From a virus (Duplodnaviria > Caudoviricetes): a stretch of DNA of 58,560 nt. The notes beneath the pieces were generated by a model. It was not told where the DNA came from. It searched no databases and saw nothing but the letters and a program-made list of their open reading frames with translations. The DNA lies in the IMG/VR virus record IMGVR_UViG_3300009170_000007, positions 1-58,560 of that record; one strand, 5' to 3'. Shown here piece by piece: positions 918 through 57,813 of the stretch (positions are counted from its first letter, which is position 1; each line of letters begins with the position of its first letter). The translations under genes were made by a program, and so were the position numbers.

Positions 918-1101
918 CCCAGCCGGAAATGATCGTTACCGGGAGATTACTAATCAACCCACCAACTCAGATGGTATATCTCTCAACCTTAGGTACTGTT
1001 CTATTTGTAAGAACCGTGTGCAAATCGCCGGCGGGAAATACATTAGAGGTACCTCCCGCCATAACCCTGGACGCTTTATCTGTAAGGATTGCAAATGTTA
1101 G
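904..1101 (+). CDS. Small zinc-finger protein
   Basis: CSIC...CKDC; similar to 774..917. Confidence 0.65.
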   Translation: MAMFDPAGNDRYREITNQPTNSDGISLNLRYCSICKNRVQIAGGKYIRGTSRHNPGRFICKDCKC

Positions 1102-1835
1102 TTGACCTGTGTTACGAAGTAGCCGCCATCCCCTCTTATCAATCCCTTTATACTGGGGTCAGGAAAGTGGTGCAGGGAATCACCCACTCCCTGGATACTC
1201 TACCTGAAGTCGACTTAGCTCAGCTAGGTTATCGGGGAGGAAAAATCCCTCAACTCATGCGTAACTACTTCAATCAGGAGGAAGTCAATGCAGCTAAAAC
1301 CAAGCTGGCCGCTCGCCGCAGTTCTCCGCACACATCCGTTGCTCTCAATACCCTGGGACAAAACAAAGACACTCGGTCTCAAGGGCACTGTATCCGTTCC
1401 ATCATTATTACTCAAACAACCAAGTGGACTGAAGTCGACATCATATACCGAAGCACGGAGCTCATTCAAAAGCACACCGCCGATTATGCCCTCTTACCAA
1501 TCATTCTTGAACAGCTTGGCCTGGCACACCCCCCCCGCATCTACCGGCTTTACTTCGCCAATTGCTTCCTTACCGCGCTCTTCGCTCCGATCCTCTTTCA
1601 GCATACCCACCCTATTGAGTTCTATGAACACCTAAAGAGGCACGATCCTCGGTACTACCGGACTTTCCTCAACGCCACGGCTAAGTTCTTCGAGCCAGAA
1701 TGCCGATACGCTTACAAGCATAGAGTAAAGATGTGGGAAATGACTCAGGCTAAACTGGACTGTCGTGCCTTAGCTAAATACTGCCAGGACAATGGCGCCT
1801 CTTTTCAGCCTGGGGAGTACCTCGATGAGTCTTAA
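1095..1835 (+). CDS. Divergent thymidylate-synthase-fold protein (paralog 1)
   Basis: GHC (catalytic Cys position) followed by YRSTELIQKHTAD, matching TS RSxD-x7-N/D spacing; AAGGA RBS before ATG 1095. Confidence 0.6.
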   Translation: MLVDLCYEVAAIPSYQSLYTGVRKVVQGITHSLDTLPEVDLAQLGYRGGKIPQLMRNYFNQEEVNAAKTKLAARRSSPHTSVALNTLGQNKDTRSQGHCIRSIIITQTTKWTEVDIIYRSTELIQKHTADYALLPIILEQLGLAHPPRIYRLYFANCFLTALFAPILFQHTHPIEFYEHLKRHDPRYYRTFLNATAKFFEPECRYAYKHRVKMWEMTQAKLDCRALAKYCQDNGASFQPGEYLDES

Positions 1836-2028
1836 GAATTTAGATGAAGTAGCCATCCTACAAAAGTACATCGTTGATCTTGATCAAGAGTTGTCAAGAC
1901 AGAAGGATGAAAATAGGATCCGGTTCATGTGTGCTGCCCTTTCCAGTACTCCGGCTAATGCCAACCCTGAATTAGCCGCTGACAGGGCTTATAATATCGC
2001 TATACACTGCATGAGAATAATTCAATGA
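1825..2028 (+). CDS. Hypothetical protein
   Basis: GGAG RBS; overlaps both neighbours. Confidence 0.6.
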   Translation: MSLKNLDEVAILQKYIVDLDQELSRQKDENRIRFMCAALSSTPANANPELAADRAYNIAIHCMRIIQ

Positions 2029-2831
2029 AATACCCCTCTTTCCAAGATCTACTGATGGATGTTCGGTTGGCCTTTTCCACAGCGCCCATTGTTAAGCCAA
2101 GTCATTGGCAGGGGACGCTGGTTCGTGGTAAGCCAGACATGGAGACTTATGAGATCCTCAACCACTCCTCTACCCTATGGTTACCGGATGAGGAACTAGA
2201 AGGCTATCGGAAAGACATTGAGCCTGACCTTCCATGGGCTGATGATCACTTTGAGGAAAGAGTCTGCGGCTATCCTCTCAACCCCGGTATTCAATGGTCC
2301 AAATGGAGATTAGGGAAAGGTGCCGACCAGTTCAGGGAGCCCAGTGGGAGGTTCAACCACAACTATATGGAGCGATTCTGGCCCCGCTACGCCCGTAAAG
2401 TTCCCGCGTCCGATAGACCACAACCCCAGTTTCTTTTAGGTTTGACTCCACATAGGGGAATCCTCTATGAGTATGGTGACTTGCATAGTGTAGTCGAGTT
2501 ACTAGCTCGGGAGCCCCTCACTCGTCAAGCCTTTCTACCTATATTCTTTCCAGAGGACACCGGAGCTGTCCATAAGGATCGAACTCCCTGTACCTTAGGC
2601 TACCATTTCATAGTCCGGAACGACCAGCTGCATGGCGTTTATTATCTTCGCTCCTGTGATGTTACTAATCACTGGCGAAATGACATCTACATGGCCATTC
2701 GTCTGATAATATGGATATTGGAACGGTTAAGGACCGTTCAACCCGAGGCCTGGGAAATGATTAGTCCCGGGACTCTTACAACTCACATTACCTCACTACA
2801 CTGCTTCCGTGGAGAATACTCAAAGCTTTGA
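2025..2831 (+). CDS. Thymidylate-synthase-family dCMP-modifying enzyme (hydroxymethylase/methylase-like)
   Basis: TRQA, RTPCT (catalytic Cys), YYLRSCDVTNHWRND, HITSLHCF; Asp at the E. coli TS Asn177 position as in T4 dCMP hydroxymethylase. Confidence 0.85.
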   Translation: MKYPSFQDLLMDVRLAFSTAPIVKPSHWQGTLVRGKPDMETYEILNHSSTLWLPDEELEGYRKDIEPDLPWADDHFEERVCGYPLNPGIQWSKWRLGKGADQFREPSGRFNHNYMERFWPRYARKVPASDRPQPQFLLGLTPHRGILYEYGDLHSVVELLAREPLTRQAFLPIFFPEDTGAVHKDRTPCTLGYHFIVRNDQLHGVYYLRSCDVTNHWRNDIYMAIRLIIWILERLRTVQPEAWEMISPGTLTTHITSLHCFRGEYSKL

Positions 2832-2892
2832 AGAACTCTGGGCTGAACTCAAATTTCAGCTCAATCTAACCGACCATGACCTGGAGAACCAA

Positions 2893-3792
2893 ATGAAACC
2901 TCTTGTTATCTACCACGCCAACTGTGCAGATGGATTCGGAGCCGCTTACGCTGCATGGACCCATCTGGGCGACCACGCGGATTATGCTCCCGCCAATTAC
3001 GGAGATTGTGTGATTAGTGCTGATAGCATCTTGATTGGCGAAGACACCTACGTAGTTACCGATCGTTGGGTATACATCTTGGACTACTCTTTGCCGGTTT
3101 CTGAGATGCATCTGCTCATGAAGATCTGTCCACGAGTAATCTGGCTAGACCATCATAAGACGGCCATCGAGAACTGGGTCGGGAAAGGGGCTCTGGATGA
3201 GTTTGTTAGCATCAATTCTTCTACCAACATCCGACTCAATAATGAGAAGTCTGGGTGTCGTCTAGCTTGGGAGTTCTTCCATACCGAGGAACCCCCCATG
3301 GGATTACGACACATCGAGGACTGGGATCTGTGGCGCTTCACGATGGCCGACACTAAGGCTTACTGTGAAGGACTACGTCAAGTACCCCAGAATTTCGAGG
3401 CCTGGGAAGAAGTCATGCATTCTCCTGATCTCCACTGGAAGACCATCCGGGTGGGGGAAACACTGCTGAAGTCTCAAGCTATCCGGATCAATAAGGTAGC
3501 TCACGGAAAGTTGAACGCCATTACCCTTCACGACAACGAGGGTACTCCTCACACTTTCAATAGCATCAACGTCTGCAATGACATCAGCGAAACGGGTAAT
3601 GCGATTTGCCTTCGTACCGGTTTGCCCAGTGCCACCTTCTTCGTCAATCTCAATGAAGTAGTCATCTCTCTTCGATCAGAGGGTGACTTCGACGTTTCCC
3701 GAATCGCCAAGCACTACGGGGGCGGTGGACACAAGAACGCAGCTGGATTCAAGATGAACACTACCATCTTTTTCAACACCATCTGGAAATGA
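2893..3792 (+). CDS. DHH/DHHA1 family phosphoesterase
   Basis: YHANCADG, ILDYS, LDHH, C-terminal GGGGHKNAAGF; GGAG RBS before ATG 2893. Confidence 0.9.
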   Translation: MKPLVIYHANCADGFGAAYAAWTHLGDHADYAPANYGDCVISADSILIGEDTYVVTDRWVYILDYSLPVSEMHLLMKICPRVIWLDHHKTAIENWVGKGALDEFVSINSSTNIRLNNEKSGCRLAWEFFHTEEPPMGLRHIEDWDLWRFTMADTKAYCEGLRQVPQNFEAWEEVMHSPDLHWKTIRVGETLLKSQAIRINKVAHGKLNAITLHDNEGTPHTFNSINVCNDISETGNAICLRTGLPSATFFVNLNEVVISLRSEGDFDVSRIAKHYGGGGHKNAAGFKMNTTIFFNTIWK

Positions 3793-3793
3793 C

Positions 3794-4072
3794 ATGAAAA
3801 CTATCTTCGTAACTCCCGACACCCTAAAGGATAGCCCTGAGCTGAACATGATTCGCAAAGCGTTAGCGGCTGAGCTCATCGAGCTTTCCCGACCTCTGGA
3901 ACTGGTGGTGGATGATGAGATCATGGATCATCTATTGATCGTTATCAGTAACTTATGCTCAGAAATACCCCAACCCAAAGAGATATACGACCGGCTCCTC
4001 GGCAAGGGATATAAGCACCCCGCGGGATGGGCACCTAACGAAACCCACCCCACCCCTGAGCAAGTTCAATGA
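3794..4072 (+). CDS. Hypothetical protein
   Basis: Fills operon gap; ATGA overlap with next gene. Confidence 0.65.
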   Translation: MKTIFVTPDTLKDSPELNMIRKALAAELIELSRPLELVVDDEIMDHLLIVISNLCSEIPQPKEIYDRLLGKGYKHPAGWAPNETHPTPEQVQ

Positions 4073-4545
4073 GAATTTCCCGGGACGAGCAAATGGCTTA
4101 CCATGCCCTCGTCACCTCTCTTCGCTCTACCTGTGGACGAAAGATGGTGGGGGCTATCATAGCCAGAGAGGGGAGAATCATATCCTCGGGCTATGCTGGG
4201 CCTCCCTCGGGATTCCCTCATTGCAACAGGGCCTGCACGGTGGCCTCAAGCGCCATGGGTGGATGTCAACGCACCATTCATGCCGAGCAGAACGCTATCG
4301 CTTACGCCGCTCGACATGGCATCTCTACCGATGGGGCAGTCTTGTATAGCACGTTGTCTCCCTGTACAAATTGTGCAAAGCTCCTGATCAATGCTGGGAT
4401 AAATGCTGTAAAATACATTGAACAGTACCGGGACGCCTCCGGAATTGAATTACTTACTTCAGCTGGAATACCATGTACAACAGTGAATGTCAACTCTGCA
4501 ATCTTCACAAATCTTCAGCAAGCATATGTATCCCAGCCACTTTAG
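4069..4545 (+). CDS. dCMP deaminase family Zn-dependent deaminase
   Basis: RSTC...VGAII, HAEQNA, SPCTNC motifs. Confidence 0.9.
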   Translation: MRISRDEQMAYHALVTSLRSTCGRKMVGAIIAREGRIISSGYAGPPSGFPHCNRACTVASSAMGGCQRTIHAEQNAIAYAARHGISTDGAVLYSTLSPCTNCAKLLINAGINAVKYIEQYRDASGIELLTSAGIPCTTVNVNSAIFTNLQQAYVSQPL

Positions 4546-6956
4546 CCGAAGAGTCTACTGATGTCTTAGTCATTGGCGATGCTCCAAGTGTCTCCGACGC
4601 CAATGCCGGTGCTTACCTCCAGGGGAAGCTGGGAGCTGAGCTCTATCGAGCGATGGATAAGATTGGCATCGAACACTTCGCTTACACTGGGGTAGTCAAG
4701 TGCAACCCGCCAGATGGCAAAAAGCCCGAGCCCGCTGAGGTCAAAGCCTGTTCCCATTACTTACAACAAGAGATAGCCCGGTTACGACCCAAGTTCGTTC
4801 TGGTGCTCGGGGCTACCGCAGTAAAGTCAGTCTGTAAAGAGGCCCGAATCACTGGTGTCGTAGGTAAGGTCATTGAGCGGGACGGCATCAAGTACATGCC
4901 TTGCTTCTCTCCGGCTTATGTTCTGCGTGATCCAGGGAAAGCTCCTGAGTTCAATCGGACTATGGCTAGGTTCAGGGATATGGTAAGAGGGAAGACCCAG
5001 ATTACCACCGAACTCAAAATCCGTATCATCGACCGATCTAACCTGGATGAGTTTCGAACCAAATTCCAGTTAGAGCGTGAGTTTGTATGTGACCTAGAAA
5101 CTTCTGGGCTGGACCATTTTCAACCAGCCTCATACATCAACTGTGTGGGGATGTACCTCCCTTTGGCAGGGGAAGCCTGGGTCTTACCGATACGCAAAGC
5201 TCCAACCCTTCCGGAGGAGACTCAACGTCGACTGCTTGAATGGATGTCCAGCTTAAGCATTCCGGTCATCAACCAAAACTGGAAATTCGACTCACTCTTC
5301 CTGTACCATAAGTTCGGAGTGTCATTCTACAACCGGGATGACACGATGCTTGCTCACTATAACCTGGACGAGAATACCCCGCATGGCCTGAAGGAGAATG
5401 CTAGGTTCCACCTGGATGCTCCTGACTATGATCTGACCACGGCGGAAAAGAAGGGCAATACCACGGCTACTAAGCTCTTCACGTATTGCGCCTGGGACTG
5501 CCACTACACCTATCAGCTCAGGAACCTGTATCGTAAGGACCTGATGAAGGACTTGGAAACCCGAAATATCTATCAGCATCTGACCATGCCCGCCTCCAGG
5601 ATGTACGAGGTTATCGAGCGGGAAGGCCACTTCGTCAACCTGGATAAGTTCCGTGCAACAGAACAGGAGCTATCCACTAAGCTCAAACTGGCAGAAGCTA
5701 AACTCAACCATTCTCTAGGACACCCCATCAATTGGAACTCTCCCGCTCAGGTTGGAAAGGCCCTTTACCATGATCTGGGATTGACTCCATCGGTCTTTAC
5801 GGACAAGGGAGCGGCCAGTACCGGGGAAGAAGCTCTATCCCATCTGGACCACCCCATCGTCAAACAACTGGTGGATTACCGGGAGAATCAGAAGTTTCTC
5901 TCCACCTACATCGAGGGATGGAAGGAATTCATGATCGGCCCCTATCTATACCTTGGGACTAAGCTCCATGGGACGGTCACTGGACGTTACTCTTCACGAC
6001 TCCACCAGGTACCACGTGACGGGACCATCCGCAACCTGATCGAAGCCCCTCCAGGATGGACCTTTGTACAAGGTGACCTCTCCCAAGCTGAACTGAGGGT
6101 CATCGCCATTGTTTCTCAAGACCCAGAACTGGTCAAATGCTATCGAGACGGTATTGATGTTCACTGGAGGACTACGGTTGGGGTTCTTCGGTTAGGGGGA
6201 AGTGAAGCTGATCTTCAAATGGCCAGAGAGACTGTAGCCAAGACGGGGTCAGGTATGGAGCCTCTCTCCATGTCAGAGGTATTAGACCAGTTAGAGGCTA
6301 TGGGACCGGATATGGCTGTGCAACTGGAAAAGCGTTGGAAGGAAAAGCGGAAGCAGTCCAAGGGAATTAACTTCGGGTATGTTTATGGGATGGGAGCTAA
6401 CAAGTTCTGTGAATATGCCAAGCTTAAATATGAGTGGGACGTAACCTTCTCTGAGTCTACCAATATACGCACAGGATTCTTTGGGACTTACCATTTTCTA
6501 CCGGCCTGGCACAAGCGTCAACGGGACCTAGTCAAAATCGATGGGTTCGTTAGGTCTCTATCGGGTAGAAAGCGTCGTCTACCGGGGATCTGGTCTCCAG
6601 ACCGTATGGTCTCTTCTGAAGCTGAGCGTCAAGCAATCAACTCTCCAGTCCAGGGGTTCATTGGTGACCTGAAGGTCATGGGGATGCTAGATATCTATGA
6701 GAAGATTCAACTTCTGAACCCAGACAAAATCCGGATGAAAGGTGAAGTACATGACTCTATCCTCATGTGGGTCAAAACCGAGTACTTGGATGAAATCTTA
6801 CCGCAGGTAAAAAGATGTATGGAGAAACCCACCTGGCTGGACCAATTTGACATAAAATTACCTGTTCCCATTGTAGCTGACATCGAAGTTGGCCCTTGGG
6901 GAGCTGGCAAACCTTGGCATGGAGAAAAGCAATGCTTAAACTGTTCGATGCAATAG
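4473..6956 (+). CDS. polA: Family A DNA polymerase with N-terminal family-4 UDG-like domain and 3'-5' exonuclease
   Basis: CQLC..GDAP..VVKCNPP..C (UDG-4); DLETSGL, NWKFD, YCAWD (Exo I-III); DLSQAELR, KGINFGYVYG, VHDS (motifs A-C). Confidence 0.95.
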   Translation: MYNSECQLCNLHKSSASICIPATLAEESTDVLVIGDAPSVSDANAGAYLQGKLGAELYRAMDKIGIEHFAYTGVVKCNPPDGKKPEPAEVKACSHYLQQEIARLRPKFVLVLGATAVKSVCKEARITGVVGKVIERDGIKYMPCFSPAYVLRDPGKAPEFNRTMARFRDMVRGKTQITTELKIRIIDRSNLDEFRTKFQLEREFVCDLETSGLDHFQPASYINCVGMYLPLAGEAWVLPIRKAPTLPEETQRRLLEWMSSLSIPVINQNWKFDSLFLYHKFGVSFYNRDDTMLAHYNLDENTPHGLKENARFHLDAPDYDLTTAEKKGNTTATKLFTYCAWDCHYTYQLRNLYRKDLMKDLETRNIYQHLTMPASRMYEVIEREGHFVNLDKFRATEQELSTKLKLAEAKLNHSLGHPINWNSPAQVGKALYHDLGLTPSVFTDKGAASTGEEALSHLDHPIVKQLVDYRENQKFLSTYIEGWKEFMIGPYLYLGTKLHGTVTGRYSSRLHQVPRDGTIRNLIEAPPGWTFVQGDLSQAELRVIAIVSQDPELVKCYRDGIDVHWRTTVGVLRLGGSEADLQMARETVAKTGSGMEPLSMSEVLDQLEAMGPDMAVQLEKRWKEKRKQSKGINFGYVYGMGANKFCEYAKLKYEWDVTFSESTNIRTGFFGTYHFLPAWHKRQRDLVKIDGFVRSLSGRKRRLPGIWSPDRMVSSEAERQAINSPVQGFIGDLKVMGMLDIYEKIQLLNPDKIRMKGEVHDSILMWVKTEYLDEILPQVKRCMEKPTWLDQFDIKLPVPIVADIEVGPWGAGKPWHGEKQCLNCSMQ

Positions 6957-8191: not shown

Positions 8192-8953
8192 ATGTCTGAC
8201 CTCATCCTCCCCTCCGCGGTTTATTCGGAGACCCATTCCCCCAAGCTGTCTGATCAATACGTTCATATCAAGACGGCAGATGTTCTTTCACGTTTTCAGG
8301 ACATGGGTTGGGAAGTTTCTTCGGCCAACGCGGCTAAGCACTCGAAGACCCCTCAGTTCGCACGCCACGCTATCCGTCTGCGTCATAAAGACTTTCCGAT
8401 GCTGGATACCGACAACGTGGTGCCTGAACTCATCGTACTCAACTCCCACAACGGTTCCTGGGCCTTGCGTATGGCTCTGGGCATGTTCCGTATGGTTTGC
8501 TCCAACGGCATGGTCGCCGGATCGCTCTGGGGTGGCATCGCTCTGAAGCACTACCGGATCAAGGACTTGGAAGAAAAGGTAGTCCAGGTCACCCATGAGA
8601 TCGATGGACTCAGCCACAGGCTGTCTGACAGCATCAAGCACTGGTCGGATGTTCAAGTCCCCCTGAAGGAACAACAGGAGTTTGCTCAGAAAGCTATCGC
8701 CATTCGGTGGGGCAATCGCAATCCTCTTACCGTTGAACAACTTCTGGAAGCACGTCGCCCGCAGGACATGGGAAGTGACCTCTGGAAGGTTTTCAACCGG
8801 GTACAAGAAAACCTGACCCAGGGTGGTATGATGGGCAGGTCGTCCAGTGGAGCTAACCTAAAGCTTCTCCCCGTCCGCAATGTCAAGCGGGACTTCAAGT
8901 TCAACTCCCAGCTCTGGGATCTGGCTAACGAATTCGCGAAGGAAGCAGCATGA
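8192..8953 (+). CDS. DUF932/DUF945-family protein
   Basis: LNSHNGS...GMFRMVCSNGMV, DLWKVFNRVQEN, NSQLW motifs. Confidence 0.85.
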   Translation: MSDLILPSAVYSETHSPKLSDQYVHIKTADVLSRFQDMGWEVSSANAAKHSKTPQFARHAIRLRHKDFPMLDTDNVVPELIVLNSHNGSWALRMALGMFRMVCSNGMVAGSLWGGIALKHYRIKDLEEKVVQVTHEIDGLSHRLSDSIKHWSDVQVPLKEQQEFAQKAIAIRWGNRNPLTVEQLLEARRPQDMGSDLWKVFNRVQENLTQGGMMGRSSSGANLKLLPVRNVKRDFKFNSQLWDLANEFAKEAA

Positions 8954-14412: not shown

Positions 14413-16215
14413 TTAAGGGCGTGGTTTCAAACCGAGAACCCTCTTGGTTCCGGACTCCAGGGGTTGCTGAACCCCCTGTGATGCTCCCCAAACCAGCCTT
14501 CCGGCCGGACTCCCCTCCAAGACGTCTTTGGCGAAGTATAGTCTCTTGGCTCCTTCGGACCCCAAAAGGGACCTAGTTCCTGGGATGTGGGCTAAGGCCG
14601 CCCGAACCCCCTGGAAGGGACTCCCAGCTACTACTCCAGCCATAGCCGTCAATGGTCCCATAGGGGGAGTAGGAAGTTGACCCGTGGTCAAATGCCGACT
14701 TACGTCAGGAAGAGTATTGAGTGTGCTGAACAGATCCTGACCTGTCGTAGACATGTAAGGATAAATGTCTTGGAGGTTTTGGGTGTGACGATTGACATCC
14801 GAGTATAGCTGAGCCGGGTCAGTGTAAGCTCTTGGAGTAGCCCCATACACCCCTTGGTTAGAGCGTTGATAAACCTTATTGTTGACTGTCCCTGGAACCA
14901 CCTTATCCCGCCAAAAGCTCTTGGCATCAGACAGGAGGGACTGAGCTGACTTGTCTTTTACTGCCCAGGCGTCTACGTCAGCCGACAAGTTGGAATACAG
15001 GTTACGAAGCTCGGTTCGGGCTTTCCGGTCGCCCATGGATGACCCTGGAACAGCGGCATCTTTTTCGGCCCTACGCAGGGCGGTTCCTACGGCTGTCTGA
15101 AGCTTATGAAGCTCATCAAAAGACAGTAAAGTTTTAGGGCTTTGAAGAGCCATAAGTCTTTTAGCTGAATCCGGATCAAACTCGTCGATTCGCTGATAGA
15201 TAGGATTTTTCTCTAGTACCGAAACTCCCCTTTTGTTGACTGGAGTCAACTGAGCCACTACTCGAGAGACCGTAGGGGCAGTATTCAAGAGCTTTACTCC
15301 AGGAAGCCCGGCATTAAGGACATGGTTATCCAGTTCTTGCCACAACTGGCTCCCTCGAGTCTCTAGAGCTTTTCCACCCTCAACAATAGCTTCCCTGAGC
15401 TTTTCACCCTCTAGAAGACGAGGCTCAAAAGATTTCCCGGTCTTAGAAGGAATGTCCTTAATGTCTTGAGCCGCCCGAGTAAAGGCTAGACTCTGGTCTT
15501 TTACAATTCCTGGATATCCCGGGAGGTTACGCTCGAGAGCTGAAGTGGTAGAGGATGGGTCCAGGTCCCCAATTTTCCGGTCTATCCCCAACCTATTAGC
15601 CGCCGAATTGAGCCGCATGGCGGACTCTCCCTCTGGGGAGTATTGACGACCGACAGCTCCAGCACCCTTGCCCGCTAGTTGAATCATACTTCCTGTCAAG
15701 GCCGTGGTACCTGCGGCGGCGCCCGAGTTTACTAGCCGCTCTAAGGTTTCAGGACCCTGAATGGGGCCAGCCGTGGGACGCACAGCCGCTCCAGCGCCAG
15801 CTAGCAGCACCTGGGGAAGCACCTTAGCGCCACCCAATGCCGACGTAATGACATCTGAGCCCAGCCCTCCAGCACCCGCCTCCCAGTTACTGAGCAGGGC
15901 CTTGTCGATGCTCGACTGATCGCTTTTCTCTTGGTTATATTCCTTGATCCGTTCGGGTGTCCCGAACATCCCAATCCCAATCTCCTTAAGTCCTCGGGGG
16001 ATTCCCATCATCCTTTGACCCATTCCAGCGGCAAATAGCTCAGGGCCTGACATTCCCTGAGTGTTGTCTACTGAAGCTGGTTTGGACTGAGCCTCTTTAT
16101 TGGCTTGAATTGCCATACTCAGTGGATGACTCTTAAGGTAAGCGTTCAATTCCTCATCGGAAGCCGAGCTGGCATATGCCGCTACTTCTTCCGGGGTCAT
16201 ATTGTCAAGTTTCAT
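14413..16215 (-). CDS. Putative ejection (internal virion) protein
   Basis: Last gene of structural operon; Ala/Gly-rich hydrophobic stretches plus helical body; typical podovirus position. Confidence 0.65.
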   Translation of the reverse strand: MKLDNMTPEEVAAYASSASDEELNAYLKSHPLSMAIQANKEAQSKPASVDNTQGMSGPELFAAGMGQRMMGIPRGLKEIGIGMFGTPERIKEYNQEKSDQSSIDKALLSNWEAGAGGLGSDVITSALGGAKVLPQVLLAGAGAAVRPTAGPIQGPETLERLVNSGAAAGTTALTGSMIQLAGKGAGAVGRQYSPEGESAMRLNSAANRLGIDRKIGDLDPSSTTSALERNLPGYPGIVKDQSLAFTRAAQDIKDIPSKTGKSFEPRLLEGEKLREAIVEGGKALETRGSQLWQELDNHVLNAGLPGVKLLNTAPTVSRVVAQLTPVNKRGVSVLEKNPIYQRIDEFDPDSAKRLMALQSPKTLLSFDELHKLQTAVGTALRRAEKDAAVPGSSMGDRKARTELRNLYSNLSADVDAWAVKDKSAQSLLSDAKSFWRDKVVPGTVNNKVYQRSNQGVYGATPRAYTDPAQLYSDVNRHTQNLQDIYPYMSTTGQDLFSTLNTLPDVSRHLTTGQLPTPPMGPLTAMAGVVAGSPFQGVRAALAHIPGTRSLLGSEGAKRLYFAKDVLEGSPAGRLVWGASQGVQQPLESGTKRVLGLKPRP

Positions 16216-17774
16216 TTCTTTCCACCGTACCTAAGCATTAGCTGGTCATGGGCATGTTGTAGCTTGAGCATCTCTTCCCTCATCACTCGGTCTTTGCGTT
16301 GATACCAGTTGGGGGACAGCTGATTCTTGTTAGCCGCGGCCATCTTATGGGCCTCTTCGGCCAACCGCATATTGGACCTAGCCACTAAGATCATGTACTC
16401 AGTCAAAGACTTCCTACCCTCACTGGTCAATCCCAGGGTTGGAGCCATGTTCATCAACAACCGCTCTTCAAAGGTAGTCATCGAACCCGGCATCAGGTTA
16501 TCACCGTTGGCAGTTCGTTGAGCCAGTGAGAGGTTTGTGGCAATAGCCGTAGCCAGATCAGCCGGCCCGATCGAGGGGTCTACATTGATTCCCAGAGACT
16601 TGGCCCCAGATTGGATTTGATGAATGATTGGAGCTAATGCACCCTCAGGGATATTGGGATCTTCGTAGATCTTCCTCAGGAGGGTAAGTTGATTCAAGAG
16701 CCTGGCTTGATTAGTGTGTAGCTGACCCAGGGACTCATATTCCTTGAATAGTCCCTTACCTTCAGATTCACCATACCCTTTGTTTTGCTCTTCCACACGC
16801 TTGTCTTTATACTCCAGAGTAGCCGGAGGGGTTTTGGGAGCACCTAACGATCTCATCTCTTGCTTGAGTAAAGCTTGATTTCTGAGGGCTTGCTGATACT
16901 CAGGATGAGTGATATCATTCTTGTATCGCTGAATGATCTCATTTTCTTTGTCCCATTCCTGACCCAAGATCATCTGCCGATCAGATTCTGGAGAACGGGC
17001 ATCGGGGAATCCCGCCGTTGCTCCAGACTTGGAGTTATTTGGGGAAGTCGAGACGGGCTCAACTCCAGGGGTAATCGGACCCTGAACTCCAGCCGGGCGA
17101 GTGGGCTTCTGGACGGTATCAACGGTGACTATTCCACCGGGAACACCCCTTAGGGCCTGATTAGCCATATTCGTGGCATAACCCTCAGGGTCTTTCATCG
17201 TTTCAGCTACGGCTTTTTCGAATGCCAACTTATAGGCATCACCCCAAAGCTTGGTGTGGGTAGCGGGGATCATCTCTCGCTGGCCCGTAGCTTTATTCAT
17301 GATGTACAGGTTTCCATTGTCATCTTTGAACTGAATGAATGAACCGGCACTACCGCCTCTGCCCGCGAGCATTGACAAGCCCCGTACGTTCATCAAGTCC
17401 AGCTTGTCCAGGTCTTTTTCATCCTCATAACCCAGTTTGGCAGCAGCGAGCTCCCCGGCTTGTTTCAACTTAGCTTGCTCGCCAAGCATCGCCCCTCCCT
17501 GAGCAATGCCTTTCAGAGCAGCATAGCCCGTCGGAGTCCCTGGACCGAAGTTTCCGATCATGGAATACAGGCTGTGAAGCGTCGGGGTGTAGTCCTCACC
17601 CATCGCCGGTTGACGAAGACGGTTCTGGTACTCACCGAGGGCATCAGCACGGGACATTGCTTGACGTTGCTCTTGCTCTTGCGAGGGGATGCGCGACATG
17701 AGCAACTGTTGCAATGCACCTGTCACATCACGACTTTGTGCTGCTTGAGGAAGAGTCATCGGAACGTCAGACAT
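16212..17774 (-). CDS. Putative ejection protein
   Basis: Helical, Gln/Ala-rich; PGSMTTFEERLL..MAPTL motif; position. Confidence 0.65.
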   Translation of the reverse strand: MSDVPMTLPQAAQSRDVTGALQQLLMSRIPSQEQEQRQAMSRADALGEYQNRLRQPAMGEDYTPTLHSLYSMIGNFGPGTPTGYAALKGIAQGGAMLGEQAKLKQAGELAAAKLGYEDEKDLDKLDLMNVRGLSMLAGRGGSAGSFIQFKDDNGNLYIMNKATGQREMIPATHTKLWGDAYKLAFEKAVAETMKDPEGYATNMANQALRGVPGGIVTVDTVQKPTRPAGVQGPITPGVEPVSTSPNNSKSGATAGFPDARSPESDRQMILGQEWDKENEIIQRYKNDITHPEYQQALRNQALLKQEMRSLGAPKTPPATLEYKDKRVEEQNKGYGESEGKGLFKEYESLGQLHTNQARLLNQLTLLRKIYEDPNIPEGALAPIIHQIQSGAKSLGINVDPSIGPADLATAIATNLSLAQRTANGDNLMPGSMTTFEERLLMNMAPTLGLTSEGRKSLTEYMILVARSNMRLAEEAHKMAAANKNQLSPNWYQRKDRVMREEMLKLQHAHDQLMLRYGGKK

Positions 17775-17783
17775 ATTGATTCC

Positions 17784-18503
17784 TTACTCGTTAAAGTTGA
17801 TTCCGGCCCAGTTCAACAGGTTGTTGATCGTGCCGTCGTTGAGACCGGAATTCAAGACCCCTAGTGCACCGGACAGTTGTTCCATGGTGCTTGGGCCGGC
17901 CGACGAAGACGAGATCGACTGAGCTTGACCAGGACGCATACCCGCGTAGATCTGACCCACTTGACCCAAAGCACTGAGCGGGTAATTCGCTTGCTGAAGC
18001 CAGTTAGTGAAGTCCTGTTGACCGGCTTGCGTACCCATCTGTGTCCAGTCTTTGTACTGGTTGCCAGCGGCTTGTTGAGCGTTGAACAGAGTCTGCCCTT
18101 GCTGCCCCATCAGGTTCTGTTGTTGGTCAGAGATAGCACGATTAGTGAAGTCCGCATTGCGGGTAGAACCAAACTGACCTGCACCAGCAAACGTGCTGTT
18201 GACTCCAGGAAGGATGTTCTGGAACAGGTTTTGATTTGACAGGCGGGCTTGCTCATTCACCACGTTGTTGATGTACGGGTTCATGAACTGCTGTTGATTG
18301 TTAGCGTTCCACTGGGAATACTGACCCAAGGCTCCCTCGTTCGGGGCGGCATTGTACCAGTTGTTCATCGTGTCATTGATGAACCCAGTATCACCCATGA
18401 TGTCCTGCAATCCACCCGCAAGCGATTGGCCCGTCTGGGTGTAGTACGCCGGTTGCGTGTAGTCTACGGTAGTACCGGCTTGAGGAGTTCCAATATCAGC
18501 CAT
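17784..18503 (-). CDS. Putative ejection protein (Gln/Asn-rich)
   Basis: QFMNPY..NVV and AGQFGSTR motifs typical of podovirus pilot proteins. Confidence 0.7.
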   Translation of the reverse strand: MADIGTPQAGTTVDYTQPAYYTQTGQSLAGGLQDIMGDTGFINDTMNNWYNAAPNEGALGQYSQWNANNQQQFMNPYINNVVNEQARLSNQNLFQNILPGVNSTFAGAGQFGSTRNADFTNRAISDQQQNLMGQQGQTLFNAQQAAGNQYKDWTQMGTQAGQQDFTNWLQQANYPLSALGQVGQIYAGMRPGQAQSISSSSAGPSTMEQLSGALGVLNSGLNDGTINNLLNWAGINFNE

Positions 18504-19950
18504 GATTACGGCCTTTCATATAAGCGAGGGGTGACTTAGCCTGAGGAGGCAGTCGATTGGGTTGTCCCTTGTGACGACGAATACCCGCCATCATCTGGTT
18601 CAGTTGAGCAGCTCCAGCGTCGGTGTTTCCATCACCCAAGTGGGAGACAACGTCCGAAGGAACCACGAATTCACCCCCGGCCAGTTGAGCCGGAATAGCG
18701 TCGGCTTGACCACCAGAAGCGTGACGTACTAGTGAAGGGCTGAGAAACTGACCTCGTACAGGACCACCAGCGGCGTAATTGTGAGCTTGAATCAAACCGC
18801 CCTCACGCTTAGCTTTTCCAGTACTCTTCATGCGAGCAACCTTCCACTTCTCAGCGTCTTTACTACCTTGAGTAGATTTCGGACCAGTCTTTGGACCACC
18901 CATCAAAGCGGCCATCATCGCAGCCATGTTCAACGCGCCCATCGCACCGTTGGAAGTGGTTGTACCATCACGGTTTCGTGTAGGGGAATTACCCGAGACT
19001 CCAGCTCTGGTAGTTGGAGTTTGTGAGTTAGCCCCACCGCCTGAGGCACTGGCTTGACCACGATAACCTGACGTAGCACCAGCAGCACCAGATCCAGGAC
19101 TTCCAGGACGTTGAACACCATACAATGAGGGACGACCAGCAGCTAGGTTATTGGCAATACGCTCATCCTGATAATACTGTGGACCGTCTTCACCGAGCCA
19201 CCCAATGGCGTCATTGTTACGAATATCTTGGATGAAAGTGTCACCCGCATTGCTGGTACGATACTCGTACGGGTTCTGGTAGTCAGTTCCCTCAGTACCG
19301 AGCAAACCGACCACATCACCATTTTCATCCAGGTACGATTGGCTTGGACGCGTTCTAGGGTCATCCTCAAATGAGCCGACCGGCAACGCCCCATACAGAC
19401 CACTGCGCAAAAACTCAGGGCTGATCGACTGTGCTCTGGGCGCTCCGTACTCTGTCATCAATCGCTCAGCTTGATCGCGGTCAACAATCTCGCCTGTGGG
19501 CAGTTGAACCTGACCACCACCCATGTCGGCGAACTCAGACGTGGCGTCATTGAGCCTAGAGAGGTTCTGATTACCCTCTTGCAGTGCCGCCATGACCATC
19601 GGGTTGTTGTCGGAAAGCGCAGCGGTGTCAAACCCGTAGTTGCCCCCCGTAGTGAGTTCTGCGCCCAGAGGAATATCGCTGAAGGTATAAGGACTCATTC
19701 CACTGGTATCGAAACCAGTGTTGATGATAGAACCAAGATCACCGTCGAAAAGGTATTGATCGGAGTCAATTACTCCCATCCCTTGACCGAAGTCATTCAG
19801 ATAGTTGCCGATATCATTACCTTGTGAAATGTAATCATTCCACGAGGAATCAGGCTCAAATTCTGGGCCAGCGTATTCGCTTAGCCCATCATCGTAAGTG
19901 TAGTCGCTGACATACTCTGGCTCAGCATAATAATCATAATACTCATCCAT
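18496..19950 (-). CDS. Putative internal virion protein with very acidic N-terminus
   Basis: Likely start MDEYY at 19950; C-terminal YAAGGPV and DAIPAQLAGGEFVVPSDVVSHLGDG. Confidence 0.7.
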   Translation of the reverse strand: MDEYYDYYAEPEYVSDYTYDDGLSEYAGPEFEPDSSWNDYISQGNDIGNYLNDFGQGMGVIDSDQYLFDGDLGSIINTGFDTSGMSPYTFSDIPLGAELTTGGNYGFDTAALSDNNPMVMAALQEGNQNLSRLNDATSEFADMGGGQVQLPTGEIVDRDQAERLMTEYGAPRAQSISPEFLRSGLYGALPVGSFEDDPRTRPSQSYLDENGDVVGLLGTEGTDYQNPYEYRTSNAGDTFIQDIRNNDAIGWLGEDGPQYYQDERIANNLAAGRPSLYGVQRPGSPGSGAAGATSGYRGQASASGGGANSQTPTTRAGVSGNSPTRNRDGTTTSNGAMGALNMAAMMAALMGGPKTGPKSTQGSKDAEKWKVARMKSTGKAKREGGLIQAHNYAAGGPVRGQFLSPSLVRHASGGQADAIPAQLAGGEFVVPSDVVSHLGDGNTDAGAAQLNQMMAGIRRHKGQPNRLPPQAKSPLAYMKGRNHG

Positions 19951-35780: not shown

Positions 35781-36188
35781 TTACAGAATTTCGTCGATTT
35801 CTTCAAACGCTTCGGGTGACACCTTAGCGATTAGTTCATGATCAGAGAACACGCAGAAAATTGCCGTGTCATCCGTCCCGGGGATCTTACGCTCGAACCG
35901 GTCACCCCCCCATTTAGGAATCCGGACATAGTCTCCTGGACGAGCCCATACACCCTCACGCCAGAGTTCACCTGTGTCTCGGTTACGGAAGGCAATAGGC
36001 CCAAGCATGATCAAACGACCGAGTTGCGTATTGGCCTTATTGAAAGTCTTGGTATCCTCAACCAGAACGATACCCCCCAAGGTTTTGGTGCGAACCGTGC
36101 GGAGTTGAACAACCACTCGTGCGCCAAGCGGGGACATGCCGGGATGGATCTCCGGAAATGCCGTTTGTAGATCAGAAGCTGAGATCAT
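35781..36188 (-). CDS. groES: GroES-like co-chaperonin
   Basis: PLGARVVV, KTLGGIVL mobile loop, PGDYV..PKWGG, DHELIA. Confidence 0.85.
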   Translation of the reverse strand: MISASDLQTAFPEIHPGMSPLGARVVVQLRTVRTKTLGGIVLVEDTKTFNKANTQLGRLIMLGPIAFRNRDTGELWREGVWARPGDYVRIPKWGGDRFERKIPGTDDTAIFCVFSDHELIAKVSPEAFEEIDEIL

Positions 36189-52348: not shown

Positions 52349-53053
52349 GTGATGACTAACAATCGTGCGATCGAAAAGATCCAGAAGCTGCTGGCGCTGG
52401 CCAGTGACCCGGGCGCTGCGCCCCAAGAGGCGGAGACGGCAGCCCGTCAGGCGGCGTACCTGATGGCCCAGCATGACCTGGACCTGGGCGACCTGGCCGC
52501 AGTGGAGCTGGCGGCGCAGTGGGATATGACCACTCAGTCGGCTCAAGGCTGCAGACCGGGAAAGCGTAACGCGGTGGAGGTCCCGCCCTGGATAGGGATC
52601 ATCGCTTGGGGCGTCAAGATATTCACCCGGACCCGAGCTTCGAACGGCCTCGGCACTGTTACCTTCAAGGGACCCAGGGAGGACGTGGTCCTCGCCGTCT
52701 GGCTCCACGAATACCTCCTGCACCAGGCGTACGCAGCCAGTAAGGGCCTGGGCCTGGGTGAGGCTAACAGGTTCCGTAACGGATTCGCTAGCGCCCTCCA
52801 GGGGCGCCTGAAGGCTCTGGCCAAGGCCAGGGACACTGCGGACCAGGAGCTGACCGCCGGCAAGAGTGGCACTTCCTTGGTTCGGGTACAGGATGCTCGG
52901 AAGCAAGAGATGGACAAGTTCTTCGGTGACGAGGCCAGGGGACACACCTCCAAGGTCGGCCAGTCGATCGACGGTTACTTGGCGGGCCAGAAGGCAGCCA
53001 TCCCCACGAACCGCCCCCTGACCGGGTCTAGCAATCGTCTGCTGGGGAGCTAA
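52349..53053 (+). CDS. DUF2786-domain protein
   Basis: IEKIQKLLALA.DPGA.P.EA..A...A..LM..H; F..GF...L..RL; GY.AG. Confidence 0.85.
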   Translation: MMTNNRAIEKIQKLLALASDPGAAPQEAETAARQAAYLMAQHDLDLGDLAAVELAAQWDMTTQSAQGCRPGKRNAVEVPPWIGIIAWGVKIFTRTRASNGLGTVTFKGPREDVVLAVWLHEYLLHQAYAASKGLGLGEANRFRNGFASALQGRLKALAKARDTADQELTAGKSGTSLVRVQDARKQEMDKFFGDEARGHTSKVGQSIDGYLAGQKAAIPTNRPLTGSSNRLLGS

Positions 53054-53349: not shown

Positions 53350-53353
53350 TGCC

Positions 53354-54178: not shown

Positions 54179-54232
54179 AGTTATCCCCAACAGAAGAAAA
54201 GTTATCCCCAATCAAGACCGAGTTATCCCCAA
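54179..54232. repeat. Three 12-bp direct repeats at 21-bp period (iteron-like, candidate origin)
   Basis: AGTTATCCCCAA at 54179, 54200, 54221, next to an AT-rich tract (53920-54085) and the primase-helicase. Confidence 0.75.
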
Positions 54233-56665: not shown

Positions 56666-56770
56666 TTTTCCTCCTAGAAAGTTTACTGCTAGATACCACT
56701 CGGGTTATAATACCACTTTACCCCCGAGCTAGAAACATTCGCTCCCACTAAAATTTTCCCAGGTAACCCC

Positions 56771-57262
56771 ATGATCATAGTTGAAGGTCCAGACAATACC
56801 GGAAAGACCACACTTATCCAACAGCTGCAGGATATTTTTCATCTGCCATCACTTAGGGCGGGCTTCCATCCACAGAACCCTAAAGACATCCATCAATATC
56901 ACTACTGGGCGGTCACCTCCCCACGTCAGTTGATTTTAGACCGACACCCCGCCGTCTCGGACTTCATCTATACACCCATCCTGAGACCCACCGAACCTGA
57001 GCTCTCCTCATTAGACCTCATCATTCGGATGTTGGACCGTCACTACACTATTTTCGCCCTCCCTCCATTCAACCAGGTTGAAAAGAGTTATGACGAACGA
57101 CCTCAACTTAAGGGGACGAAAGAAAACCTCCGACGCATTTATCAAGCCTATGAGAAACTGTTGAATGACTTTGAACCCAACTTCCTGTATGACTATACCA
57201 AACCCAATGCCTTTACGGCTCTCACCACCCACCTAACCCACTACCTGGCGCGCTCATCATGA
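56771..57262 (+). CDS. Nucleoside monophosphate kinase (thymidylate-kinase-like)
   Basis: IIVEGPDNTGKTT P-loop, ILDRHP..SD..Y, YDYT. Confidence 0.85.
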   Translation: MIIVEGPDNTGKTTLIQQLQDIFHLPSLRAGFHPQNPKDIHQYHYWAVTSPRQLILDRHPAVSDFIYTPILRPTEPELSSLDLIIRMLDRHYTIFALPPFNQVEKSYDERPQLKGTKENLRRIYQAYEKLLNDFEPNFLYDYTKPNAFTALTTHLTHYLARSS

Positions 57263-57813
57263 TCCAAGAAACCCTTCCCCGAATCTTCGAATTTCAGTCT
57301 CAGCTCATCGAGACACTCCGTCCCATCGAAATTGAACTGGGATATACCCCACCCCAAATTCCGTTAGATTTCACTCTCAGAGCCCACCAGGACTGGTTCC
57401 GGCTCATGTCATGGTACCTGACGGAAGAGATCATCGAGGCGAAAAGTGCTAACCACACCCTGCTTCCCGAGGAAATGGCTGATGCCCTTCACTTCGCAGT
57501 GGAACTGTGTATCCTCGCCGACATCCCACCTCATCAGGTGTTAGAACGTCTGGCCCTGGAGCAATTCGAGCCTTACTCCACCCCGCAAACCCTGGACGAC
57601 GTCATCTTCCATCTGGGACTAGCTAACAACCTGCTCAAGGCTAAGCACTGGAAGAAAAACCCCAAGCCCACACCACTGAGCAACTTCCGGTATCATCTGG
57701 CTTCTTCCTTGATCTCTTTACTTCAGTGCTTCTTCCAGGCTCAGATTGACCCCGCCGAAGAGTACTTCAAGAAGCATCAAATAAATAATGACAGAGCCCA
57801 ATCCGGGTACTAA
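57259..57813 (+). CDS. All-alpha dNTP pyrophosphatase (dimeric dUTPase/dCTPase-like)
   Basis: TEEIIEA...EEMADALHF, K.KHWK, EYFKKHQIN..RA.SGY. Confidence 0.8.
   Translation: MIQETLPRIFEFQSQLIETLRPIEIELGYTPPQIPLDFTLRAHQDWFRLMSWYLTEEIIEAKSANHTLLPEEMADALHFAVELCILADIPPHQVLERLALEQFEPYSTPQTLDDVIFHLGLANNLLKAKHWKKNPKPTPLSNFRYHLASSLISLLQCFFQAQIDPAEEYFKKHQINNDRAQSGY

Follow-up and report, generated by a model that had tools for sequence, protein, structure and literature searches.

The replication region of a near-complete (~92%) uncultivated phage genome, which we analysed as a single window of 58,560 nt, carries a module of nucleotide enzymes comprising a kinase, two thymidylate synthase-like proteins (TS and TS2), a deaminase and a PolA (Table 1). 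Judging by sequence and by analogy with published systems, we give a probability of about 60% to the reading that this module modifies cytosine before replication, such that cytosine would be replaced by its 5-methyl or 5-hydroxymethyl form. The original prediction had likewise proposed a modified-cytosine pathway; its foundation, an Asp-type TS within a conserved module that mirrors published systems, stands, while the modification itself is argued from homology and context. The runs that hold the phage record are ordinary metagenomes, kept as contigs.

Table 1. Features of the module and its surroundings in the window
Feature	Position	Strand	Remarks
TS2, very divergent TS-like paralog	1089..1835	+	248 aa from TTG 1089; ATG at 1095
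78-aa ORF between TS2 and TS	1792..2028	+	44-nt overlap with the end of TS2, 4-nt overlap with the start of TS
TS homolog, cytosine type	2025..2831	+	268 aa; candidate dCMP C5-hydroxymethylase or C5-methylase
DHH/DHHA1 phosphoesterase, NrnA-like	2809..3792	+	PF02272 30.6 bits; phrog_4771 1e-63
92-aa ORF	3794..4072	+	between DHH gene and deaminase
dCMP-family zinc deaminase	4069..4545	+	PF00383 72.2 bits, 3.5e-20; phrog_174 1.3e-42
UDG-superfamily domain + 3'-5' exonuclease + PolA	4473..6956	+	PF03167, PF01612, PF00476
Small P-loop NMP kinase, thymidylate-kinase-like	56771..57262	+	P-loop GPDNTGKTT; candidate kinase of C5-modified dCMP
All-alpha (MazG/dimeric-dUTPase-like) NTP pyrophosphatase	57259..57813	+	candidate dCTPase or dUTPase

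The central element is ORF 2025-2831, a divergent TS homolog of the cytosine (Asp) type, whose activity we infer from its residues. It contains YYLRSCDVTNHWRNDIY, and reading of the DNA (CGC at 2649-2651 for Arg209, GAC at 2682-2684 for Asp220) confirmed the Asp that had been reported 11 residues after the Arg. That Asp220 is the equivalent of E. coli Asn177 and T4 Asp179, the position claimed for it from the start, follows from agreeing alignments and not from the residue count alone: mafft aligns it with Asn177 of E. coli and the corresponding Asp of PaMx74 ThyA, phmmer with the Asp of the CMP hydroxymethylase MilA, and hhalign comparisons with the TS family profile set its HWRND on FGFRND of T4 gp42, the Asp of which is Asp179 (probability 88.6%, a remote homology), LPYD of the Xp12-type TS family on Asp220 (95.3%) and the RSCDV blocks of E. 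coli ThyA in gap-free register (93.9%). In the same numbering, Arg186 occupies the position of E. coli Leu143 and Asp212 that of Asp169, while Cys189 aligns with the nucleophile. All 31 aligned homologs share Asp220, and all 81 family members from the window and 80 IMG/VR loci have it together with Cys189, Arg209 and Arg186, so that it is not a chance substitution; Asp212 is kept in 80 of the 81, with one Glu.

General TS models recognize this protein below their cutoffs (PF00303 with 20.6 against 24.3 bits; the archaeal-type model TIGR03283 at 9.1e-9, with 35.1 against 174.55 bits). It matches phrog_160 at 3.3e-24, has 3624 homologs at E<=1e-5, and finds its best PDB sequence match in MilA (E 7e-4, 69 residues). 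In the mafft alignment, it has no C-terminal tail beyond the SLHCF strand, the tail being the element that seals the site for hydride transfer in TS (PMC6400193). A six-frame search of the window detected PF00303 in ORF 2025 alone, with no canonical TS, no ThyX and no DHFR.

Paired tightly with TS is ORF 1089-1835, which we predict from its motifs to be a second TS-like paralog; it lies inside the interval covered by the original prediction, which had missed it as such. TS2 has no Pfam, NCBIfam or PDB sequence match and belongs to phrog_34294, to which no function is assigned; a search at E<=0.001 yields 204 cluster representatives. Cys101, Arg121-Ser-Thr-Glu124 and Asp132 are retained in TS2, and in 40 sequences K52, Y60, K93, C101, R121, E124 and D132 are invariant. 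In hhalign comparisons, the Cys and RS..[DE]..D motifs are in register with T4 gp42 (E 0.0086), and the motifs likewise with PaMx74 ThyA (E 0.0041, 122 columns) and the Xp12-type TS profile (E 8.7e-4, probability 23%). The top ESM Atlas match, a lead only, is a PF00303 cluster (0.90; 182 of 256 features), and GenBank MW202455 includes a member of the family under the annotation 'pyrimidine hmase synthase'. Our preferred guess is that TS2 is a second dCMP-directed C5 enzyme. Since one TS suffices for an Xp12-type route to plain 5mC, the scheme first proposed leaves the pair unexplained; with two C5 enzymes, one paralog might provide the modified cytosine of the DNA and the other, together with the deaminase, thymidylate. 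The 78-aa ORF between the two has no Pfam or PHROG match and a homolog in one of 80 related loci (L007), and may not be a real gene; the 92-aa ORF has neither a match in family searches nor a homolog in the 80 loci.

The other enzymes named at the outset, i.e. the kinase, the pyrophosphatase (weakly), the deaminase, the DHH protein and the phage's own polymerase, are all present. The kinase matches phrog_761 'thymidylate kinase' (4.3e-15) and viral 'thymidylate kinase' clusters in the ESM Atlas (0.98, TM 0.87), while its Pfam and NCBIfam matches span the P-loop alone and stay under their cutoffs; it could simply be a dTMP kinase. The pyrophosphatase, whose first 4 nt are shared with the end of the kinase gene, matches PF08761 dUTPase_2 (4.7e-4; 20.9 bits against a cutoff of 22.9), PF01503 (0.094), phrog_12184 'nucleotide pyrophosphohydrolase' (9.6e-10) and, weakly, the PDB entry 4qgp (E 0.33). 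The deaminase displays the HAE and PCxxC motifs, matches PDB entries of the S. mutans dCMP deaminase (2.7e-22), cyanophage S-TIM5 (2.1e-21), T4 cd (6.4e-21) and the PBCV-1 dCMP/dCTP deaminase (6.5e-14), and shares 25% identity with PaMx74 cd. Its candidate substrates are dCMP, yielding dUMP, or a modified dC nucleotide, as in the conversion of 5mdC to dT.

The association of these genes was assessed in 80 related IMG/VR loci and, for upstream genes, in the 64 with >3 kb upstream of TS. The deaminase is found in 67 of the 80, with PolA directly 3' of it in 65, and the kinase in 54 of the 64. Among the 57 loci whose flanks extend for at least 1.5 kb upstream and 3.5 kb downstream, 48 contain kinase, TS2, TS, deaminase and PolA together, and the gene order is identical in the cultured phages MW202455, Yersinia phage P744 and Gordonia phage Nina. 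Two proposed components fare less well. The all-alpha pyrophosphatase, present in 9 of the 64 loci, gives little backing to the idea that canonical dNTPs are destroyed, and the DHH gene, present in 7 of the 80 and every time directly 3' of TS, is an accessory, possibly recycling oligonucleotides to mononucleotides.

The closest parallels are Xp12, PaMx74 and the MetaGPA contig 'mSCD-B5', which, like the window, combine an Asp177-type TS (acting on dCMP, as proposed for the window TS) and an adjoining dCMP-family deaminase with an NTP pyrophosphatase, a phage-encoded PolA and a Cas4-like exonuclease in the replication module; the gene set of Xp12 and PaMx74 runs PPase-TS-deaminase. Their TS, however, is a full-length ThyA of ~290 aa that scores above the PF00303 cutoff, retains the C-terminal tail and has a DHFR partner, whereas the window TS lacks tail and DHFR and is paired with TS2. 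Among the matches listed in a tblastn search with the window TS (E<=1e-3) there was no Pamexvirus, which places it in another clade than the Xp12-type enzymes. T4, with gp42, the dNMP kinase gp1, the dCTPase gp56 and the deaminase cd, shares with the window the Asp at the specificity position, the missing C-terminal tail and the kinase/pyrophosphatase/deaminase logic; it differs in having, in addition, a canonical TS (td), DHFR and glucosyltransferases, for which no counterparts were seen in the window. MilA of Streptomyces rimofaciens (PDB 5b6d/5jnh), the best solved-structure match, aligns at both Cys and Asp over its 69 residues, yet its substrate is the ribonucleotide CMP, in an antibiotic pathway, and not the dCMP proposed here. 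At the Leu143 position, the invariant Arg sets the window TS apart from E. coli (Leu), the Xp12-type methylase family (Asn), T4, where Asp145 is the water-activating residue, and MilA, which has an Asp (PMC13326640).

The published record agrees with a role of such enzymes in cytosine modification. Asp177 TSs are described as enriched in cytosine-modified contigs (PMC8670742), and of the deaminases in modified contigs 104 of 149 lie within 3 kb of a TS, versus 17 of 277 of those in unmodified contigs (bioRxiv 2024.12.05.627091). The same preprint reports that five of seven tested Asp-TSs made 5mdCMP and that a TS-linked deaminase prefers 5mdCTP and 5hmdCTP; in Xp12-type systems, deaminases act on 5mdC nucleotides, and dTTP is made from 5mdCTP where cytosine is replaced (bioRxiv 10.1101/2024.12.05.627091). 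In Xp12 and PaMx74, C is replaced by 5mC (PMC8670742, bioRxiv 2024.12.05.627091).

We therefore propose the following pathway. Because of the Asp at the Asn177 position, TS would bind dCMP and not dUMP, and Cys189 would, with methylene-tetrahydrofolate, add a one-carbon unit at C5. The product would be 5-hydroxymethyl-dCMP or 5-methyl-dCMP, two outcomes that are not separable and that we each hold tentatively, at somewhat under even odds. The lack of a tail and of DHFR, MilA as top PDB match and two related loci in which TS sits inside a sugar-nucleotide tailoring cluster lean toward the hydroxymethyl form, the coupling to the deaminase and the published result on Asp-TSs toward the methyl form. 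The P-loop kinase and a host NDP kinase would then yield the modified triphosphate for the phage PolA to insert instead of C, and the pyrophosphatase may lower competing canonical dCTP or dUTP. The deaminase would supply thymidylate, either from 5mdC nucleotides or by converting dCMP to dUMP for the host TS, and TS2 belongs to the module in dependence on TS. The final base is probably a plain C5 adduct, since no sugar or group-transfer enzyme is evident: Pfam searches of 49 window ORFs found no hypermodification genes, six-frame searches no GT1, GT2, carbamoyltransferase or C5-MTase, and the glycosyltransferase said to be missing was found by neither. Several large minus-strand ORFs (14413-23751) have no family match, so a transferase there may go unrecognised.

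The same genes could form a self-contained route from dCMP to dTTP, in which TS or TS2 methylates dCMP, the deaminase at once yields dTMP, kinase and pyrophosphatase serve as dTMP kinase and dUTPase, and virion DNA is canonical. We consider this unlikely. The frequent company of TS and deaminase, the thymidylate kinases as the kinase's nearest named relatives and the dUTPase family as top Pfam match of the pyrophosphatase all suit it, and it would equip a phage that encodes neither a canonical TS nor ThyX with a dTMP route of its own; but published systems of the same architecture have modified DNA (Xp12, PaMx74 and the enriched Asp177 TS contigs), two TS-like paralogs would be left unexplained, and TS occurs without the deaminase in 6 of 57 loci.

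Slightly less probable again is a hypermodified cytosine, with TS2 and/or unannotated ORFs enlarging the first C5 adduct. TS is present in 32 of 32 TS2-seeded loci, yet also occurs without TS2 in some related loci, as would fit a downstream or dependent step, although this co-occurrence may merely reflect the inheritance of one replication module. Elsewhere, TS family members adjoin sugar-tailoring genes or amidotransferase and C5-MTase genes, but the window has no recognisable transferase, and the fold and chemistry of TS2 are putative.

Replacement of thymine, and perhaps of cytosine too, by 5hmU is improbable. Its SPO1-like form, the alternative initially considered, needs a dUMP hydroxymethylase with Asn at 177 and is excluded by the invariant Asp of both paralogs. 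A TS-adjoining deaminase could in principle convert 5hmdCMP to 5hmdUMP, as seven metaviromic ones acted on 5hmdC nucleotides in vivo (bioRxiv 2024.12.05.627091), and TS has the hydroxymethylase-like traits named above; against this, Pfam searches of the 49 ORFs found no 5hmU-directed genes, and PolA bears a UDG-superfamily domain of putative activity. Most improbable is 5-hydroxycytosine made by a flavin- and O2-dependent 5-hydroxy-dCMP synthase like RB69 gp48 or DLP3 gp80, which are Asp177-type phage TS homologs as well but carry D169N (PMC13326640), whereas the window TS keeps Asp at 169, TS2 has Glu there, and neither NDP-sugar genes nor arabinosyl- or glycosyltransferases occur in the window.

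Cytosine replacement by a C5-modified form thus remains our preferred reading. Systems of this kind are already known from Xp12, PaMx74 and the MetaGPA contigs; what is uncharacterised here is this clade of TS, the accompanying TS2 and the product formed. If true, a known kind of anti-restriction trick would here be performed by an unstudied pair of enzymes.

Judged by its sequence, the protein encoded at 2025–2831 (hereafter TS, 268 aa) is a real, though divergent, homolog of thymidylate synthase, and it contains ...YYLRSCDVTNHWRNDIY... Its match to the Pfam family PF00303 (20.6 bits, E = 2.8e-4) lies under the gathering score of 24.3, and a six-frame search of the record, in which this ORF is the sole PF00303 match, yields 19.8 bits; TIGR03283, the archaeal-type model, also stays far under its cutoff (9.1e-9). 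The match to phrog_160, ‘thymidylate synthase’, reaches 3.3e-24, and many close homologs have a precomputed PF00303 match. When aligned profile to profile, a family of 31 members attains probabilities of 93.9% with E. coli ThyA, 88.6% with T4 gp42 and 95.3% with the Xp12-type TS family (E = 2.3e-8), while the closest sequence match of solved structure is MilA, a CMP hydroxymethylase.

The alignments also place the active-site residues. Cys189 falls on the catalytic cysteine (C146 in E. coli; PC189 on the E. coli PCH), and R209-S-C-D212 (RSCD) falls on E. coli R166-S167-x-D169. The original prediction had placed an Asp 11 residues after the Arg, and the DNA bears this out: CGC at 2649–2651 encodes Arg209, and GAC at 2682–2684 encodes Asp220, which aligns with E. 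coli Asn177, T4 Asp179, and the corresponding Asp of MilA and of Xp12/PaMx74. In the window and 80 IMG/VR relatives, Asp220, Cys189, Arg209 and Arg186 are invariant (81/81), and Asp212 is kept in 80/81. The positions of E. coli Trp80 and Trp83 were set aside as evidence, as the mafft alignment is ambiguous there.

At position 177, as is well established, Asn confers selection of uracil and Asp that of cytosine (PMC13326640; PMC8670742). By this residue, TS is predicted to be of the cytosine type. SPO1-type dUMP hydroxymethylases, by contrast, have Asn at the equivalent of position 177; the invariant Asp in TS and in its upstream neighbor TS2 (D132, 40/40) excludes the SPO1-like 5hmU pathway that had been offered as the alternative. 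In MetaGPA, no domain was more strongly associated with cytosine-modified metaviromic contigs than PF00303, which co-occurs with a PRA-PH pyrophosphatase, a dCMP deaminase and a ligase; Asp177 marks the modified set (PMC8670742).

The further enzymes of the original prediction, i.e. a kinase, a pyrophosphatase, a DHH protein, a deaminase and the phage's own polymerase, were all found in the window, the pyrophosphatase by a weak match; specificities of kinase and pyrophosphatase that would make modified and destroy canonical dNTPs are putative. The kinase has no sequence match in the PDB. The deaminase, which starts 1.2 kb beyond the end of TS, matches PF00383 with 72.2 bits (cutoff 25) and dCMP deaminases in the PDB at 1e-21 to 1e-22, and its translation contains HAEQNA and PCTNC. 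The N-terminal part of the PolA protein (4473–4950) matches the UDG superfamily (PF03167, 75.8 bits), and the usual motifs of UDG family 4 read GDAPS and FSPAY in its translation. Six-frame searches of the record returned no ThyX, no DHFR (PF00186), no glycosyltransferase of families 1 or 2, no carbamoyltransferase and no C5 DNA methylase. The predicted lack of a glycosyltransferase holds within the scope of the search: Pfam shows no group-transfer enzyme on 49 ORFs, with five large minus-strand ORFs (14413–23751) and several others matching no family, about a dozen ORFs of <105 aa left out of the scan and ~8% of the genome possibly missing.

Features of the window (positions in nucleotides)
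Feature	Position	Strand	Remarks
TS2, TS-like protein	1089–1835	+	
TS, thymidylate synthase homolog	2025–2831	+	
DHH/DHHA1 protein	2809–3792		
dCMP-family deaminase	4069–4545		HAE and PCxxC motifs
UDG-exonuclease-PolA fusion	4473–6956		
DUF932 protein	8192–8953	+	early region
Virion and lysis genes		−	large terminase, portal-like protein, capsid, SU10-type adaptor, holin, M15 peptidase
Cpn10/GroES-like co-chaperonin	35781–36188	−	PF00166, 26.3 bits; head-gene region
DUF2786+DUF7168 protein	52349–53053	+	early region
DUF6011 protein	53330–53734	+	early region
Primase	54420–56501		opposite strand to other replication genes
Small P-loop kinase	56771–57262		
All-alpha NTP pyrophosphatase	57259–57813		weak match

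The record is linear, estimated to be 92% complete, and has a GC content of ~0.48–0.60. Virion and lysis genes occupy ~14.4–51.4 kb, while the replication and nucleotide genes run on the plus strand from ~56.7 kb via the record end to ~14.3 kb, with a ligase, the DUF932 protein, a Cas4-like exonuclease, Sak4, an SSB-like protein and a helicase following PolA (some of these were named from PHROGs). A tRNA scan of the window found none, and no near-identical DNA was found among GenBank phages; of the sequencing runs that match the window, two (one probable source run, and one with a third of the sampled words) are ordinary metagenomes labelled freshwater sediment and stored as contigs, and three others contain only small fractions of it. 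GC skew is strongly negative across the primase/kinase region 54000–58000 (−0.29 to −0.34) compared with the remaining genome. Two small ORFs at opposite record ends, 305–616 and 58223–58558, resemble paralogs and have the stretches W..RGRP, ECW.HPE and PAGDIT in common; the second runs past the record end, and the two ends do not join in frame, which is consistent with an incomplete linear record. DUF2786-like proteins occur in 17/80 related loci.

Kinase, TS2, TS, deaminase and PolA form one module in many related loci. Its general architecture and logic are already published. According to a preprint, 104/149 deaminases of modified contigs but 17/277 of those of unmodified contigs lie ≤3 kb from a TS, one TS-linked deaminase prefers 5mdCTP and 5hmdCTP, and in Xp12 and PaMx74, which have counterparts, 5mC replaces C and some 5mdCTP is deaminated to dTTP (10.1101/2024.12.05.627091). 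The last reaction is a direct precedent for the original suggestion that the deaminase may supply thymine nucleotides from 5-methyl-C. We confirmed the gene order of PaMx74 as PPase-thyA-cd-frd. Like the Xp12 type, the window has a deaminase next to an Asp-type TS and no separate dUMP-type TS; unlike the Xp12 type, it has neither a full-length ThyA with a C-terminal tail nor a companion DHFR. TS ends 9 residues past the His of SLHCF, whereas ThyA of E. coli and PaMx74 runs ~55–65 residues further. In PaMx74, frd lies next to cd and thyA, and all eight Pamexvirus phages are reported to encode a DHFR (PMC9206674); the window has no such gene. Moreover, Pamexvirus is not among the organisms or hosts listed for TS (tblastn, E ≤ 1e-3), and the deaminases of the window and PaMx74 share only 25% identity. 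We regard TS as representing a clade distinct from the Xp12 type.

TS would yield a hydroxymethyl or a methyl product; we consider 5hmdCMP and 5mdCMP equally probable, each at somewhat less than even odds, with the remainder going to something else. Several observations speak for hydroxymethylation. TS is devoid of the C-terminal tail, which in E. coli TS closes off the folate site so that hydride can be transferred, and which is likewise missing from T4 dCMP hydroxymethylase (PMC6400193). The lack of a DHFR in the window counts in the same direction, since methylation needs DHFR, and MilA is the nearest solved relative. Furthermore, two related loci, L078 and L079, have a TS with identical active-site residues inside a sugar-nucleotide tailoring cluster, which would need a hydroxyl acceptor. 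In favor of methylation are the tight coupling to the deaminase, the absence of a dUMP-type TS, and the experimental result that 5/7 of the Asp-type TSs assayed made 5mdCMP, as stated in the preprint (10.1101/2024.12.05.627091). At the position of E. coli Leu143, T4 has Asp145, which activates water, the Xp12 type has Asn, and the TS family has an invariant Arg (Arg186); a ‘methyl versus hydroxymethyl’ rule for this position was set aside as indecisive, given the Asn of the validated Xp12-type methylases. Lastly, RB69 gp48-type 5-hydroxy-dCMP synthases have Asn in place of Asp169, the published criterion for these flavin-dependent enzymes (PMC13326640), whereas TS keeps Asp212, which argues against an enzyme of this kind.

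Two contexts of TS outside the module deserve description. In L078 (3205–13834) and L079, a TS of this family that shares the Arg, Cys, Asp and Asp has no TS2, deaminase or PolA nearby, and is accompanied by a cupin, two FkbM methyltransferases, an HAD+nucleotidyltransferase fusion, a CmcI/rhamnosyl O-methyltransferase, a TylF O-methyltransferase, a DegT aminotransferase and an ATP-grasp protein, while an uncharacterized 359-aa ORF overlaps the TS stop; we consider this a candidate cluster for the hypermodification of cytosine by glycosylation. A second TS2-less context (five loci by clustering; L033:4930–8813, also L055, L059 and L075) has an asparagine-synthase-like glutamine amidotransferase and a C5 cytosine DNA methylase preceding TS.

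Upstream of TS lies the second, very divergent TS-like gene, TS2, with its ATG at 1095. The original interpretation as a cytosine-modification pathway is supported in part, by the cytosine-type Asp of TS, the gene set and the deaminase precedent, but TS2, which lies within the interval it covered, went undescribed. TS2 has no match in Pfam, NCBIfam or the sequences of the PDB, and neither does its profile in the PDB; at E ≤ 0.001, 204 cluster representatives were found. In 40 aligned members, K52, Y60, K93, C101, R121, E124 and D132 are invariant and fall in the motifs SQGxC and YRSTE..KFxAD, with Asp132 located 11 residues past Arg121, just as Asp follows Arg in TS. In profile comparisons, these motifs line up with the catalytic cysteine, RS.D motif and Asp177 equivalent of T4 gp42 (E = 0.0086), PaMx74 ThyA (E = 0.0041 over 122 columns) and the Xp12-type TS profile (E = 8.7e-4), at low hhalign probabilities of 5–23%; the profile comparison with E. 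coli ThyA gave no match, and that with the family of TS itself is not significant (E = 0.32). An ESM Atlas feature search ranks a PF00303 cluster at the top (0.90, 182/256 features), which we treat as a lead only. TS2 probably has the TS fold.

A protein of GenBank record MW202455 is a clear member of the TS2 family (hhalign probability 100%) and is annotated as ‘pyrimidine hmase synthase’, a label that the positional counterpart in Yersinia phage P744 bears as well; the name ‘pyrimidine hmase’ reportedly goes back to Iyer et al. in 2013. Literature searches brought up no paper that deals with TS homologs in pairs or with modified DNA of the cultured relatives, and the Serbin announcement names kinase, TS and deaminase only.

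The TS family is large, with 3624 homologs at E ≤ 1e-5. It occurs in 118 GenBank phage records (Gordonia 68, Clostridium 10, Mycobacterium 9, Serratia 6, Pseudomonas 5, and others), its clade is also present in Yersinia phages, and the TS of the module is spread over proteobacterial, actinobacterial and clostridial phages. Relatives were found in 375 IMG/VR stretches, of which the best 80 were analysed. Among these 80 loci, the deaminase is present in 67, TS2 and PolA in 65 each, and the kinase in 58 after profile iteration (54/64 where >3 kb lie upstream), while the pyrophosphatase type of the window is found in 9/64 and the DHH gene in 7/80. Where at least 1.5 kb upstream and at least 3.5 kb downstream are available, 48/57 loci carry kinase, TS2, TS, deaminase and PolA together; of the other nine, two are without the kinase only, one has TS, deaminase and kinase without TS2, and six have TS alone.

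TS2 stands immediately upstream of TS in 49/65 loci, 29 of these 49 with a 4-nt overlap (longest-ORF starts). A scan seeded with TS2 gave 32 loci, some on shared contigs, and TS lies just downstream in 32/32. Conversely, 15 loci have no TS2; six of them have <1.1 kb upstream and hence are not judgeable, and the TSs of the remaining nine form no single clade, their common ancestor spanning the whole tree. Residues separating TSs with TS2 from those without it were sought, and none were found. Within these samples, TS2 requires TS, not the reverse.

Gordonia phage Nina shares the gene order of the module: kinase, a dUTPase-like gene, the TS2-like gp47 (hhalign probability 85%), TS, deaminase, PolA and Cas4. 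Cultured actinophages of the genus Emalynvirus carry the module, as in Nina (MK279900, 2321–9247), where a lysin B gene is inserted between TS and the deaminase, gp47 is annotated as ‘hypothetical’ and the kinase as ‘polynucleotide kinase’.

This widespread, unexplained pairing of TS2 and TS is the most interesting feature of the system. We give a chance of about one in five to the reading that the pair constitutes an undescribed two-enzyme system, by which both pyrimidine dNTPs, one of them non-canonical, would be made from dCMP alone. In such a system, the cytosine-type TS would make 5-hydroxymethyl-dCMP. TS2 would be a stripped-down TS-fold protein with a Cys nucleophile, a phosphate-binding Arg-Ser, a cytosine-reading Asp and a Glu at the position of the folate-contacting Asp169, and might re-activate the product of TS (or dCMP) by the same exocyclic-methylene chemistry. 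The outcome would be either a different C5 adduct, or 5-methyl-dCMP bound for deamination to dTMP.

A pure thymidylate bypass, in which dCMP would pass via 5mdCMP to dTMP and the DNA would be canonical, suits the deaminase, the thymidylate-type kinase and the dUTPase-like pyrophosphatase, but we think it unlikely: it leaves the two paralogs unexplained, as well as the modified state of contigs with such an architecture. We hold it to be quite unlikely that TS2 or unrecognized genes build a larger adduct, and very unlikely that 5hmU arises here through the deamination of 5hmdC nucleotides. A 5-hydroxycytosine product is, given the retained Asp169 equivalent in TS, extremely improbable.

By replacing cytosine wholesale, phages gain a major defence against restriction enzymes as well as CRISPR, and such replacement is also a source of enzymes used in epigenetic sequencing. 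While the logic of such pathways is known, the enzymes described here are not: this divergent clade of Asp-type TSs is common, yet its members are as a rule labelled simply ‘thymidylate synthase’. Some of them may have escaped the IMG/VR screen of the preprint, which required a PF00303 match at E < 1e-7 (10.1101/2024.12.05.627091), a threshold that TS with its 2.8e-4 would fail. Should the cytosine of these phages be modified, non-canonical DNA would have gone unnoticed in many cultured phages, which would affect sequencing, restriction mapping and the use of such phages in therapy and biocontrol. Beyond this, TS2, as an obligate TS-like partner, could reveal new chemistry of the TS fold.
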